Assembly (NCBI GenBank): GCA_040954595.2
Contig: CM082596.2
Span: 5,592,791 to 5,656,790 of the forward strand
DNA length: 64,000 nucleotides
From: Balanoglossus misakiensis
Lineage: Eukaryota > Animalia > Hemichordata
Reading direction: 5' to 3'
Part shown: in pieces, positions 6,201 to 39,200 of the stretch
Numbering within the stretch: position 1 is the stretch's first letter
How the letters are laid out: each line of letters starts with the position of its first letter
Notes under the pieces: model-generated
What the model was told of the DNA's origin: nothing
Seen by the model: only the letters and a program-made list of their open reading frames with translations
The model's database searches: none
Translations under genes and position numbers: made by a program

Positions 6201-9200
6201 AAGACAAAACATGCAAAGTTTACGCATGCATAGTGTGAATGTGTTTGGTTTTCAGGTAGATACTAACTACACTGTCTCCTTTCCAATTTCAAGTGCAATA
6301 TAGCGTGAGTGTCTAAGACTCAAGTGGTTCTACTGATCTGAAGTTGATACGAAACAGCGTGCTTGTTCAATTTCTTTTTAAGAAGACCATGTTTGCAATT
6401 TTTTTCTCACAGAATAAACCGAGTTCATCAACTGTTATGAATTTTATTTAGTGGTAAACTTCAGGGAAAATCACTGTCATATAACAAAATTAACTACTTT
6501 TTTCCCTCTCAATATAAACAAGGATCAATATTTCCTTGAACAAGGTGAATGTCACATATCGGTACTCTACATTACTTGCACAATGTATAAACATTTTCTT
6601 GGACTGTGTTCTACTTTATGTTATCATCCCGACATTTCCAATATTTTGGGATTCATTTATCGAGCAGTCTCAGACGGATGACAGTGCACAACAACTCGAA
6701 AGCTGGCGAATTGAGAGCGAGACAGGTGGGTCTAAACTTTACCTATCAAAACAATCCCTATCTAAATAAGAATTATCTTGTTAGTTGTCCAAACGCACTT
6801 CTTGTTTTATTACAAAAATTCCTCTCTGTGTATTGACACAACCAAGTTAGTTTAATGTTAGTGTAACATACACAATACACTAGATTAGCATTTTTAATCG
6901 AAAGTCTACTCGGCAATCATGTATGCATCCAATTAGTAGCACAAGAAATCCAAATTAATGTTATCAATGCCAGCGGCAGCAAGCCCATATTAGCAGTGAA
7001 AGCATGCAACTGGACATCTAAGCATCTTAACACTGTACCTCAGCCTATGCGATTTGACAAGGAGATGGAGAGCGGCGTGGCATAGCAGGTTTTTTTTTGT
7101 TTATAGCATGGCAGATATGGGCAGGAGCAAGGAAGTTGTCAGTGCAAGGAGTCGAAGAGGTATTGGCGGTGACCGTGTGATGACAGGATCGTCAGGAATG
7201 ATGTGGGAGAGAATGATAAAAGGGAATAAAAAATTGAAAGGAAAAAAAAATGTTATATCAGGCGACGAGAAATTGCTCGAAAAAGATGACCTGAAAGTAA
7301 GAAAGTTAGTGATCGATGTCTGCTGAATACATGATCTGCTTCAAGATTTAATGTTGCTGTCAGCTGAGCTATGAGAGATGCGAATGGCAGCTTTGAATCA
7401 TGAAATACTGAAACTATAGAGATGCAGAAAGTCAGATTTAGTATGCATGGATATATGGTCAGGAAACTGTAGCATGGAACACTGCACAGCTCTGAGTTTT
7501 CTAGCAATGCATGAAAAGATGAACTCTGAGTACATGTGTAAAGCCGGGCGACTTCAAGATAATTGATACATGCAACATGAGTGACAATACACATTATCTT
7601 GAATCAACCTTGATCGAATGACATCAGATGGTCACTTTTGTTGACCAATTTCACTCAGAAACCAATAATCTATTCTTTCTAGTGGTCAAACTTCTGAACT
7701 TGATAAAGCTACTACAATATTATGCAAAACATAATGGCATAAGAAACACATCTTATATCTTTCAGTGTCTGTAACAACTGTCTCTCCCCCCCCCCCCATT
7801 CTTTTCAGAAACTTCCTCGCACAGTAATAACAGACGTCTTAATACACAACTAAGAACACATTGTCCGATGTAATTTTTTTATCTTTTCAGTTAATATTCT
7901 GCCTTACCTGGGTTAGCAGGATATTGTCAAACAACAGTTTGGTTTCAGACTGATCTTTTGTGATATCTGCGTTTGCGTTCATTCCGAAGATTTCCGGCGC
8001 TGGATTGATTGGTAAACCTCGTGTGTATTCAAGGTAGCTCTCGTACTGGACAAGGCAAAGAGAGAGAAAAATCAAGTTTAGAAGGATTTGGATCAACAGA
8101 AGTTCAGGATTGATCGATTTAATTATAAAAAAATATTTCCCCATCTCATTAGACATGACAGATTGACTCAAATTTAAGCTGTATCAACACTTACATCACC
8201 ATCTTTCGGTGCATAGTAGAGACCACTGTTGTCGAATCGGTAGTCGTCGGATTCAATGATATCAGAATTGTAGAACTTGATGAGAATACTGTGTAGTGTA
8301 CGTCTGTCTCGGTCATCAGTTACTCTGCCACCATAGTTACACTCGCCAGTGAGATAACTGATTGCATCATATGGTACATGCTAGGTAAGAAAATGGAGAA
8401 ATATAAAATTTCATTTATTATACAAAAATGATAAAAAAAATTATGCTCGAAAAAAGTTCTTGATGTCAAACAGAAATTTTGGAAGAAAAGTGTCTTATGA
8501 ATATTTTTATGGGACATCCTCAATTTAGAAAAAAATGATAATTACCTGATGAATGTGCACATTAATTCATCAATACGCAAACTACAAACAAAATCTCTTG
8601 AAGGATAATGTCTCCGCACAGCAATATTTGTTAGATAGCCTTGAAAAGACACTGGCATTACACAATCATGTGCAATCATGTGTGTATCAACGAATCACAG
8701 CCTGAAATAATTGTTGTATACACTTCCCACTGACCTCATATTCATTCAAGAACATGGCTAGTTGCTGTACACTGATACGCAGATCAGTTTCGTTGAATTC
8801 ATAGGGAATATTCCAACCGAGTGGGCCGAATTTTCGTCTCTCTTGGATCAGGGCATGGAAGAAGCACAGACCGTACAACAATTTCTTGAATGGTCTCTGT
8901 TTGAACAAAAAAGACGGGGGGAAAATATTAATATTGATCTGAAAATTGACATGTTCTTCAGCTGCTATTGGATGTTAATGTTTGGTTGTTGGTTGGTTGG
9001 TTAGTTAGGTCGAATTGTGCCATTCTTAATTCAACTTTCAAGTGTTAGAACCCACATCCATGCTCAAAACTGATGCTGACTCGGGGAAACTGAACGACTG
9101 CCACAGATAGGACCAATGGCGAGTTTCACCCCAATAGATGTGTTTCTACCAGTCGCACACGCAATGTTGTGGCCATGGCCTGCAAGGCAAATCAAATGTT

Positions 9201-36200: not shown

Positions 36201-39200
36201 TGGAAGGGATCTTTTATTCAATACCAAAACTACATGTGCAAGCATTTGACATCACATCAGCTACTCTACACGCGTTTTTATTTTTTGTCAGACAGACTTA
36301 CAGATATGCACCCACAGTAAACTAAAATGCACTGTCTTGTTAATGCCACAGATCCAGTAGTCTGCAAATGCCACACACACACGCACACAACACACGAAAA
36401 CATACCTTTCTGGAATTGTACTGAATCTCGTCCACCAGTTTGCGGTATTTCTCCACTTCTTTGGTGTAATCGTGGAAGTTGTGCTCCTCTGACAGGAACT
36501 GATCAACGTCGGCATCAGCCTGCATGGTGGAAAACACCAGCACTTGTATCAATAATAATGTTTCATTTATTCTATTTTTCTGATTTATTTTATCTATCAC
36601 CCAACGGGCAAATATCTCCCTTTACTAGTACCCACCACTCCTTGGTAAGGGTGAAGCAATGAGACGTATAAAAGTGCCTTGCTCAAGGACACAACATTCC
36701 ACAACACTTCACATACAGTTATATTTATGTATTCCACACAGGGTGTCACGAAACATTCTCATCAAACACCGATTTACAATTACCAAGCACACCCACCTGT
36801 TTGTTGACCAAAAAGTTGTACTTGTCATAGATTTTCAGGTGCTCTACGGGTCCGGCACTCTCCTTTTGGATGACCTCTTTGACCTTGGCTTTCTTGTCTT
36901 CCAGGATTTCCTCCAGAATGACGGGCTTCAGCGACGCTTTAGCCTTGTTGCCAGCCTGCAAAGGAACGCACATACACTCAATCAAGAACTCGCCATGCAA
37001 ATTCCAGGTCACATTGGACGAATAATGCATTTCACAGTTTATATAAAACAAAGAGATTTGCGGTAACTCTCCAATGATGAAGATGAGTACAAGAAAAGTA
37101 TAAATATCCAAGAATCACAAGCTTAGAAAACACAAGTTCAGAAAGTCAGATAAACAGTCACATAGAAATAACAACCAACGATAAAGATTCGGGCCACTTG
37201 GACTAATTCAGCTGTATGTCTATTCTAGAACAAACCGATGCCAATGGACAACTGCAATGTTCTAACACAGTCCTGTAATAGAGGGACTGTGGTTCTAAGA
37301 ACTTGATGATCAGACGACTCATGAAATTATTGCAAATTTCTTTGCTGATTTACGGGCAAGCTTTCAATTGCCAATATTGTAAATCTGAATTTACACTTCT
37401 TCATTTAAAATACTAATTTATTCATACAACAATATGAACCACAGCAAATATACCAACAAAAATCTGAATGTACTTCAAGGCAGAATAAATTATTTTAAAG
37501 AGAAGAGAAAACTTCAACAACACTGAAAAAAAATATCACGTCTAGTAAACTGAAAAGAGGGAAATTGATATGGAGAGAACTGGCCAATTTCTCAAAGATG
37601 GTTGGTGATACTTGGGGGGTAGGGAAGACAGGCTGAAGTGAAAGTAGTGTTTGCCAACCAGTAATATCCTGCCCAAAGCACGGCCTAATTTCTTATGTGT
37701 GACCATCTGAAAGTGAGGTGGAATATACAGCGACAGAAACATGAGAGTGAAAAAACGTGAGTGAGCGAGACAGACAGAGAAAGAAAGAAAGAAGTAACAT
37801 GATCTCTTCTAGGACAATAGAACACAAATACAGTATGCTTAGAAACACACACAAACACACACACAATACGTATCAAGGGTTTTTAAGCCATTCATCACCA
37901 TGCTTTGGTCAGTTCCCATTGTATATATGGTACATGTACACAAAAATTGGACCCATACAGATCTGTTTTGGGGGGTGATGGGGTAAGCTTCATGCCAGCT
38001 GCTAAAGATATTCAAATACATGAGAAAATCCCACGTTCAACATCATCACAACAAATCTTAAGCATTGCAGGGATATATCTTCAACAGCGACCAAAAAAAG
38101 AAAGGTGACTATAAACCCTTGGGATGGCATCAACATAACAACTTGCAGATTGAAGTTCCATGCTATTCAACTCAAAGCTGACCATGGATTAATGCAAATC
38201 ACACACATAAAGGATCATGGTCTTTCATGTACATGTATGCTCGCTGAGTCAACAGGGACTGGCAATTACGGACAAACAAACAAACAAACAAACAAACAAC
38301 ACAAACAGCACGGCAACTTGTACATACCCATTCAGAGTAGAGCTTGGTCTCCACGCGCGGCACCATGCTGACAGACTTGACCATGACATCGTAGACGTTG
38401 AGGAGCACAACTTCAAAGTCGGAGAATGCAGGTTCAAACTTGATATCGCTGCCCTCTAGAACTAGTCTAATGATGAATCCAGAGTGCTCATACGCCCTTA
38501 TGGAGTGCTGCAGAAGGTCACACGTACAGACAGTTAAAAAGTTAGCGTCATCCTGCCAGGGCCAGAATCAGCCCCGACCAAATGATCGGCTAATAGAACA
38601 TTTAGAGTCAATATAAGAAATACAATCAATTATTTAGATGGTGAAAAGGTTGAGATACATGAAGCTAAACAGACAACAAGCCATGGCAGTCACTTTCTTA
38701 CAAAACTTGTTCAATCAGTAGATGCAACTTCTACTCACAGGAGGCTGGGCAATGAGGTCTGTGTAGTCGTCGATGGATAGCAGAGCCAGGCTCTGTAGCT
38801 GCGCCGTCATCAGGGTGGCGGCGCAGTTGAAGAAAGATTCCAGCTTCTGGCTGTTGTTACTGCTGGGTACTTGTTTTCGTCTGTTTCCTTGGTAATATAT
38901 GTTCTGCACTTCAGGGAACCACCTGAAACAGTCGAGACACGGTTATAAGACAGAGTTCAACATTTTCAATGAAGAATTCACTTACAGTATCATCTATAGA
39001 AAGACATAGGAAAGATGTAGTGTGAGGGGTACACAGATTATTATAACAGTATTTGGCAGAAAATATAGAACTCAGGGGGAAAAAGTCATGCAAATAAAAC
39101 ACTTTTATTTCAAATCATTTTGTCATAATGTAGGAAAACAAACATGTGTGTTCACTAATGCAGCACAGAAATAAATCTCAGGCACTAAATCAGGATTGAT

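Follow-up and report, generated by a model that had tools for sequence, protein, structure and literature searches.

The window analyzed here, a 64,000-nt stretch of Balanoglossus misakiensis DNA, contains on its reverse strand the coding region of DNAH7 (3229..43619, read from 43619 to 3229). Its 64 constitutive exons join into a single, uninterrupted reading frame of 4,011 residues, and all 63 introns are GT-AG, with a median length of 306 nt. The protein is 95.3% identical to that of Ptychodera flava, 90.7% to that of Glandiceps and 89.0% to that of Saccoglossus. Pfam domains on the P. flava protein follow the order tail, linker, AAA1-4, stalk, AAA5-6 and C-terminal domain; its best PDB matches are bovine and human DNAH7, and the fold search returned a dynein and nothing beyond it. 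Judged from full-length orthology and domain order, the gene is DNAH7, a single-headed inner-arm dynein heavy chain. DNAH7 is described in an excerpt of PMC10266980 as a motor of motile cilia that in humans makes up IDAb and IDAe, two of the six inner arms with a single head.

Most introns of the gene are short, as an earlier note on this DNA had observed, but seven rather than six exceed 700 nt, intron 1 (42300-43604, 1,305 nt) having been omitted from that count. Intron 1 holds a segment (42862..42870, reverse strand) reading ATG...GAC followed by a GTAAGT donor, which is likely an alternative first coding exon (MTD) that was overlooked; P. flava isoform X2 and Glandiceps isoform X1 begin with MTD, and P. 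flava X1 begins with MADVQ.

The six segments proposed as microexons in the other long introns all exist, each bounded by AG...GT, matched to the intron phase and free of stops. On the reverse strand, these are a 6-nt piece encoding AE (7044-7039, intron 59, after residue 3724), a 6-nt piece encoding NQ (9681-9676, intron 56, after residue 3562 at the start of the AAA6 lid), a 42-nt piece (20112-20071, intron 37 of phase 2, after residue 2127), a 30-nt piece encoding 10 residues (23893-23864, intron 31, after residue 1793), an 18-nt piece encoding DVNRAK (35224-35207, intron 12, after residue 531) and a 48-nt piece (37706-37659, intron 10, after residue 440). Such bounding by itself is at chance level, because 746 segments across the 63 introns, with 21-91 in each long intron, satisfy the rule of length, phase and absence of stops, a number that favors reading all six as chance AG...GT matches in long introns. 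By splice-site score within their introns, the 18-nt and 30-nt pieces rank first, AE second, the 48-nt piece fourth and NQ fifth, and the 42-nt piece is not among the six best segments. This score was rejected as a sole criterion, as unsupported segments outrank AE and NQ. With a matrix derived from the same gene's 63 donors, the donor scores of these two pieces and the 18-nt and 30-nt pieces are 2.3, 3.0, 5.3 and 7.1 against a constitutive median of 9.2; the two lowest belong to AE (2.3) and NQ (3.0), which lie under all constitutive donors (lowest 3.1).

Comparison with other acorn worms separated the segments. The DVNRAK of the 18-nt piece corresponds in 5/6 residues to optional DPNRAK in P. 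flava and DMNRAK in Glandiceps at the same junction, and at the junction of the 30-nt piece P. flava has GGGRGDA, and Glandiceps GRRGEGASAS, as an optional insert. At both junctions, isoforms with and without the insert are present in these nearest acorn worms, as RefSeq isoforms that are automatic gene models and silent on tissue or level. An acorn-worm-like sequence, P0286 (733 residues), has an insert identical to AE and an NNQ close to NQ. The matching peptides in the relatives sit at offset 0 from the junctions of this gene. For AE and NQ, support within acorn worms consists of this single sequence, and neither insert occurs in the ten P. flava and Glandiceps RefSeq isoforms or in the Saccoglossus model. 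The DNA of P0286 was not found among the 80 loci kept from a metagenome scan (37 of 64 parts), and the 17 of these loci that were aligned (54-74% identical), which are probably other taxa or paralogues, showed no NQ- or AE-type insert.

Because their peptides match inserts of relatives at equal exon joints, the AE, NQ, 18-nt and 30-nt pieces are likely optional exons, and we regard it as very highly probable that all four are real alternative exons. The other two proposed inserts had no such match. The 42-nt piece, with an acceptor score of 0.5 and no hemichordate carrier among 11 full-length models, is unproven as a microexon; two Mytilus species and Crassostrea virginica carry unrelated optional inserts of 3-7 residues where this piece would join. 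The 48-nt piece is probably a chance match, as judged from a donor score of 0.3 and an optional insert in 0/56 species sets at residue 440, where the greatest extra length among 427 proteins is +8. The earlier statement that every long intron holds a candidate microexon was therefore too strong.

The intron sequence in front of the supported pieces was consistent with this division. As had been noted, AG-free zones of about 95-230 nt precede five of the segments (AE, 229 nt; 30-nt, 166 nt; NQ, 153 nt; 18-nt, 137 nt; 48-nt, 95 nt), and the zone upstream of the 42-nt candidate is 33 nt long. Of the 1,338 AG-to-AG gaps that the gene's introns contain, the four longest terminate exactly at the AE, 30-nt, NQ and 18-nt acceptors, so that zones of 137-229 nt at the supported pieces compare with at most 119 nt at the 63 constitutive acceptors. 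Shuffling within each intron gave p values for the gap of <0.001 for AE, 0.010 for NQ, 0.021 for the 30-nt piece and 0.078 for the 18-nt piece, and of 0.46 and 0.23 in the introns of the 48-nt and 42-nt pieces, respectively. The branch points and pyrimidine tracts of the supported pieces would thus lie far from the AG, as in eMIC-regulated microexons. Chance matching applies well to the 48-nt piece and possibly to the 42-nt piece; as an account of all six segments it is very improbable, since four of them encode the same or nearly the same peptides as relatives' inserts at equal junctions and these same four adjoin the four longest AG-free gaps.

Concerning the regulatory motifs, three segments have TGCATG no more than 50 nt downstream, as previously claimed (AE at +30, the 42-nt piece at +11 and +49, the 30-nt piece at +37), with further copies at +146 from the 30-nt piece and +258 from NQ, and none within 300 nt downstream of the 18-nt or the 48-nt piece. 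The six long introns contain 19 copies against 5 in the remaining 57 (rank 4 among 2,054 hexamers, with a nominal p of 1.6e-4 that is uncorrected for this number of tests), and the antisense form counts 9 against 7. ACTAAC, which we take to be a QKI or branch-point motif, occurs nine times in the long introns and not once in the others, and is with TGCATG the most enriched non-repeat hexamer. UGC within 30 nt before the acceptor was found at one of the four supported pieces (NQ) and at 19 of the 63 constitutive acceptors; TGC stands at -21 and -33 for NQ and at -38 for AE, and the 40 nt upstream of the 18-nt and 30-nt acceptors contain none. The SRRM/eMIC UGC signal in these introns is weak; UGC is given for 74-79% of SRRM3/4 targets in the accessible part of 10.1101/2024.09.17.613571.

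Regulation of the four microexons by cell type appears likely, and inclusion in neural or sensory cells with involvement of the eMIC has about an even chance. Alternatively, the microexons could be real and regulated yet serve non-neural ciliated cells, such as ciliated epidermis, the larval ciliary band or sperm, under Rbfox or QKI and independently of the eMIC. The excess of TGCATG and ACTAAC, the mostly missing UGC at supported acceptors and the role of DNAH7 as a motile-cilia motor (PMC10266980, in excerpt) agree with such a program, as does the fact that DNAH7 was not found among published neural exons: the 12 neural-exon table files of PMC12626424 list dnah10 and not dnah7, and 12 of the 18 supplement files of PMC9303857 gave no DNAH match. 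However, the exon appears to be missing from mammals, and the vertebrates in those tables are zebrafish, mouse and human; UGC is not strictly needed for a response to SRRM3/4; and cnidarians and placozoans, which have motile cilia but predate the eMIC, are without the inserts. We consider this non-neural alternative rather unlikely, and continue with default-skipped microexons likely included in some cells.

Three of the four supported insert positions recur beyond acorn worms. Optional inserts were found in 25 of 56 species sets at the AE junction (3724), in 19 of 56 at the 18-nt junction (531; one turtle artefact included), in 8 of 55 at the NQ junction (3562) and, in acorn worms only, in 2 of 55 at the 30-nt junction (1793). 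Echinoderms and molluscs have within-species optional inserts at three of the four supported junctions, and those at the AE junction extend to a tunicate, fishes and amphibians, with none seen there in 99 amniote proteins; in the amphioxus models, the supported junctions are without optional inserts. Within-species optional inserts are absent from 52 of 62 junctions. Six junctions have inserts in at least two species sets, and five of these belong to the long introns, of which six were tested (p 5.5e-6; intron 1, counted as an alternative first exon, was left out).

Among cnidarian and placozoan proteins, extra residues occurred in 0/24 at 531, 0/24 at 1793 and 0/23 at 3724, and residue 3562 showed a fixed +1 in Nematostella only. 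This absence agrees with an eMIC program that arose in bilaterians, as given in the available part of PMC8797185, and as a test of bilaterian restriction it is weak because few such species have several isoforms.

Such recurrence could also reflect hotspots, that is, tolerant loops at the surface in which short exons originate again and again, at low inclusion and with no selected function. The recurrence of alternative exons at hotspots has been proposed (PMC8797185), the sites concerned are loops or helix ends, and insert sequences vary between phyla, as do insert lengths, which at 3724 are 2-4 residues in most sets and at 531 are 4-7. Within groups, by contrast, the peptides are conserved (DVNRAK, DPNRAK and DMNRAK; AE and AQ; a 4-residue insert from gar to frogs), the long AG-free zones are retained at precisely the supported acceptors, and other loops of variable length, such as that at residue 440, have no optional insert in the 56 species sets. 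Hotspots are therefore an improbable explanation, and optional, regulated microexons remain the reading that we prefer.

Placement on a structure model, which the earlier note had suggested, gave a position for the 18-nt site and a less certain one for AE. In the tail, DMNRAK forms a loop (380-385; pLDDT 72-74, flanks 92-94) between a helix (356-379) and a strand (386-389), and the 18-nt site is predicted to be a loop joining a helix to a beta-hairpin. AE closes helix 423-443 directly ahead of a Ser/Gly loop, and the assignment of its site to the end of the helix preceding the Gly/Ser hinge that leads to the C-terminal cap is weak because pLDDT in this region of the model is <50. By Pfam bounds only, the 30-nt site falls in the AAA2 lid domain and the 42-nt site between the AAA3 core and lid.

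Neural microexons are defined as 3-27 nt long, a range that includes three supported pieces (6, 6 and 18 nt); the 30-nt, 42-nt and 48-nt pieces are longer. With the microexons of the bilaterian eMIC (SRRM3/4, Srrm234), the DNAH7 pieces share shortness, preservation of the frame, a long AG-free zone and, among the proteins compared, occurrence in bilaterians only, and they differ in that UGC is mostly absent and two donors are weak; eMIC targets are described in the accessible part of 10.1101/2024.09.17.613571 with strong 5' sites, which the DNAH7 pieces do not have. Microexon positions shared across phyla are reported as rare in the part of PMC8797185 at hand, with four fly-mammal exons, whereas three DNAH7 junctions are common to molluscs and deuterostomes.

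Another dynein heavy chain offers a close comparison: DYNC2H1 contains a 21-nt, retina-enriched microexon (HsaEX0021304), responsive to SRRM3/4, that is likewise short, in-frame and located in the motor domain (PMC9303857). DYNC2H1 drives intraflagellar transport and has a single such exon listed, whereas DNAH7 is an axonemal beating motor with four candidates, at the tail, the AAA2 lid, the AAA6 lid and the cap hinge. The nearest equivalents are the RefSeq isoforms of P. flava (XP_070569550-557) and Glandiceps talaboti (XP_077997268-270), automatic models that likewise have optional inserts at 531 and 1793 and the MTD start, and differ in having neither AE nor NQ. Such isoforms are already present in RefSeq, but a literature search that did not extend to VastDB, the eMIC paper of 2019 or most subscription papers, which may list the exons, located no paper on microexons in DNAH7; the sole paper containing both words uses them in unrelated contexts, and one supplement file of PMC8797185 had no match.

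In cytoplasmic dynein, the C-terminal cap is attached via a flexible hinge following helix H1; removal of the cap raises the force of rat dynein from 1 to 6 pN, and stiffening of the hinge is reported to reduce processivity in Dictyostelium (PMC4339881, in excerpt). The AE insert maps to the equivalent helix-hinge, just within the Pfam Dynein_C match. These data come from a two-headed cytoplasmic motor, DNAH7 being single-headed and axonemal, and we found no comparable hinge data for a single-headed axonemal motor. In dynein-1, the loss of the cap or the change to the hinge was engineered, whereas the hinge length of DNAH7 appears to vary naturally through splicing.

The explanation that we favor as a whole, and hold to be reasonably probable, is that DNAH7 contains default-skipped alternative microexons, likely included in some cells, that would lengthen four predicted loop or helix-end positions of the motor. 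A distant branch point and a poorly defined tiny exon would keep each insert skipped unless a cell-type factor intervenes; Rbfox at the downstream UGCAUG would be the best-marked candidate regulator, and a bilaterian neuronal eMIC factor (Srrm2/3/4) its likeliest partner. The AE insert would extend the helix-hinge tethering the C-terminal cap, and force or run properties would therefore change. The 18-nt insert would enlarge the tail loop and alter contacts with the axoneme or light chains, and the 30-nt and NQ inserts would alter the lid domains of AAA2 and AAA6. With hinge, tail loop and lids altered, a single gene would thus yield inner-arm motors of differing mechanics across ciliated cell types. 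A measurable effect of the inserts on the beat seems somewhat probable.

Differing beats from one axonemal gene set are usually explained via paralogues or accessory subunits. The candidate optional exons reported here fall in the gene whose human orthologue supplies both IDAb and IDAe, and one lies at the hinge that sets force in cytoplasmic dynein. More tentatively, the bilaterian ancestor may already have spliced optional DNAH7 microexons at the tail loop, in the AAA6 lid and at the cap hinge, as a natural gear-shift giving neurons or ciliated sensory cells a motor that differs in force from the one in ordinary motile cilia. Molluscs, echinoderms, acorn worms, tunicates, fishes and amphibians would have retained it, and amniotes would have lost it; two stop-bearing micro-segments in the gene may add an off-switch. 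A precise and inexpensive test is possible in sea urchin, Xenopus-related frogs and molluscan larvae, and DNAH7, as a rare instance of microexon positions shared across phyla, would help to separate common ancestry from hotspots.

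The DNAH7 gene, modelled by tblastn with homologues followed by manual fixing of splice sites, extends from 43619 to 3229 on the minus strand as 64 exons in a single open frame of 4,011 residues, and all 63 introns of the model are GT-AG. The model is 95.3%, 90.7% and 89.0% identical to DNAH7 of Ptychodera flava, Glandiceps talaboti and Saccoglossus, respectively, which places its source among the acorn worms. Among solved structures, bovine and human DNAH7 match the P. flava protein best, and human DNAH7 makes up inner arms b and e according to PMC10266980. As the constitutive exons already join in frame, which the earlier note had also proposed, any insert between them would be optional. 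The median intron length is 306 nt and seven introns exceed 700 nt; the six long introns listed in the earlier note are confirmed, but intron 1 had been overlooked. This seventh long intron is probably explained by a short segment (42870-42862, minus strand) that starts with ATG, has a strong donor and encodes MTD, the alternative N-terminus of some P. flava and Glandiceps isoforms.

The surrounding sequence contains a long triplet repeat just upstream of the DNAH7 start (about 44380-44650), which reads as poly-Asp/Ser/His/Met. The neighbouring genes are represented by a kinesin motor exon (476-733, minus), a CDC6-like gene (59919-62142, plus) and an MA3-domain gene (52898-53221, minus) with a 1,367-codon low-complexity frame at 46971-51074, which we take to be CWC22-like.

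The six segments put forward as optional microexons (6 nt encoding AE in intron 59, 6 nt encoding NQ in intron 56, and 42, 30, 18 and 48 nt in introns 37, 31, 12 and 10) were all found with the lengths, AG-free zones and downstream TGCATG described for them. Suitable length, phase and lack of a stop are unselective, being shared by 746 segments in DNAH7 introns. The AG-free zones, in contrast, are selective: among the 1,338 AG-to-AG gaps of all introns taken together, the four longest measure 229, 166, 153 and 137 nt and terminate at the acceptors of AE, the 30-nt piece, NQ and the 18-nt piece, respectively, and AG-free gaps at constitutive acceptors reach 119 nt at most. TGCATG is found 19 times in the six long introns, which total 10.6 kb, versus 5 times in the other introns (15.4 kb); among 2,054 hexamers it ranks 4, after simple repeats (nominal p 1.6e-4). 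ACTAAC, presumably a QKI or branch-point-like motif, was also seen nine times in the six long introns and not in the others, for example at 6937, 6862, 6851 and 6785 downstream of AE.

Isoforms of relatives were gathered by homologue searches and cluster look-ups, and 485 proteins of at least 700 residues, among the matches listed, were aligned to the model. Among the seven P. flava isoforms listed, DPNRAK was present at the intron 12 junction in three and GGGRGDA at the intron 31 junction in four; DMNRAK and GRRGEGASAS were each present in two of the three Glandiceps isoforms listed. The 18-nt segment of the window encodes DVNRAK and the 30-nt segment ten residues. P0286, a 733-residue JGI/IMG protein 95% identical to Glandiceps, carries NNQ and AE at the intron 56 and 59 junctions; the corresponding segments of the window encode NQ and AE. 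Of the full-length hemichordate models among the matches listed, 11 in all, not one has the AE, NQ, 42-nt or 48-nt insert. Therefore, the proposal of a microexon in each of the six long introns stands in part: the inserts of relatives support AE, NQ and the 18- and 30-nt segments as alternative microexons, but the 42- and 48-nt segments lack a hemichordate counterpart.

Within-species length differences of 1–20 residues were scored at 62 junctions, excluding intron 1, in 58 species sets with at least two models. Optional inserts were found at the junctions of introns 59 (25/56 sets), 12 (19/56, one a turtle artefact), 56 (8/55), 37 (4/57, three bivalves and an old Nematostella model), 28 (4/57, all amphioxus) and 31 (2/55); 52 of the 62 junctions showed none in the 58 sets, including that of intron 10 (0/56). 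Of the six junctions with inserts in at least two sets, five belong to the six long introns tested (p 5.5e-6); since kin are not independent, the set counts show spread rather than separate events. At residue 3724 (intron 59), echinoderms carry AQ or SQAQ, molluscs KR, KANK, QGE or SQGE, and Clavelina ADDS, and four residues are inserted in paddlefish, sturgeon, gar, salmonids, ranid frogs and a newt; no extra residues were found there in 62 mammal, 37 reptile and 23 cnidarian/placozoan proteins, absence from such gene models being weak evidence. Judged by the position of the inserts, these introns would be homologous across phyla. Among proteins of Lepisosteus (P0359, P0170, P0360), Patiria (P0255-P0262) and Diadema (P0244) at this hinge junction, gar has two different four-residue inserts, and starfish show none, AQ or SQAQ, a variety that suggests two microexons in this intron of other species. 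In Branchiostoma (P0208, P0287-P0300), optional pieces of 17–18 residues at junction 28 and about 20 near 3282 were observed, together with swapped blocks near 1870-1910; these models showed no optional insert at the five junctions used by other bilaterians.

The 48-nt piece, located at a length-variable loop, has a donor score of 0.3, under all 63 constitutive donors, and a 95-nt AG-free zone as expected from shuffles (p 0.46); with no TGCATG downstream and no counterpart in the aligned proteins, it is very unlikely to be a real microexon. For the 42-nt piece, a poor acceptor and an AG-free zone of just 33 nt stand beside two nearby TGCATG, TGC at -8 and a donor resembling those of AE and NQ; the optional insert of bivalves at this junction is unrelated to it, and we regard it as a somewhat doubtful candidate. 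In the same intron, a 6-nt AG...GT segment (19659-19654, minus) is preceded by an AG-free zone of 98 nt, has TGC at -11 and a strong donor (7.1), and surpasses the 42-nt candidate in its splice signals; it carries an in-frame stop and is a possible poison microexon. A possible second one is an 8-nt segment of intron 8 (38993-38986, minus), which would introduce an in-frame stop; its acceptor (8.8) and donor (8.6) are both strong, and its AG-free zone measures 75 nt.

Concerning regulation, the long AG-free zones fit the architecture described for SRRM3/4 targets in 10.1101/2024.09.17.613571, and the bilaterian origin of the eMIC, as outlined in PMC8797185, fits the bilaterian-only spread of the DNAH7 inserts. 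However, UGC lies within 30 nt of the acceptor in one of the four supported pieces, two have weak donors, and Rbfox-type sites are close by in just two; therefore, they are classed as alternative microexons that probably act in the manner of cell-type microexons, rather than as established eMIC targets.

In the predicted tail of Glandiceps (mean pLDDT 85), DMNRAK would form a loop from a long helix to a beta-hairpin, and the 30-nt site lies near the beginning of the Pfam dynein AAA-lid match after AAA2. In the weaker model of P0286 (mean pLDDT 75), the AAA6 lid has NNQ at the beginning of its first helix, and AE appears to terminate a helix ahead of a Ser/Gly loop close to where the C-terminal domain begins (local pLDDT <50). 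For cytoplasmic dynein, PMC4339881 describes a C-terminal cap suspended by a flexible hinge after helix H1, a rise in force from 1 to 6 pN upon cap removal, and a reported decrease in processivity with a stiffer hinge. By analogy, a hinge insert may alter the force of the axonemal motor.

Microexons in motor proteins, DYNC2H1 included, are already known (PMC9303857), and DNAH7 isoforms with and without inserts are already present in RefSeq; no paper on DNAH7 microexons appeared among the titles listed by our literature search. The contributions of this locus are four supported exons within a single gene, a signature that identifies them from sequence alone, and acorn-worm support for the 30-nt site together with the clade pattern.
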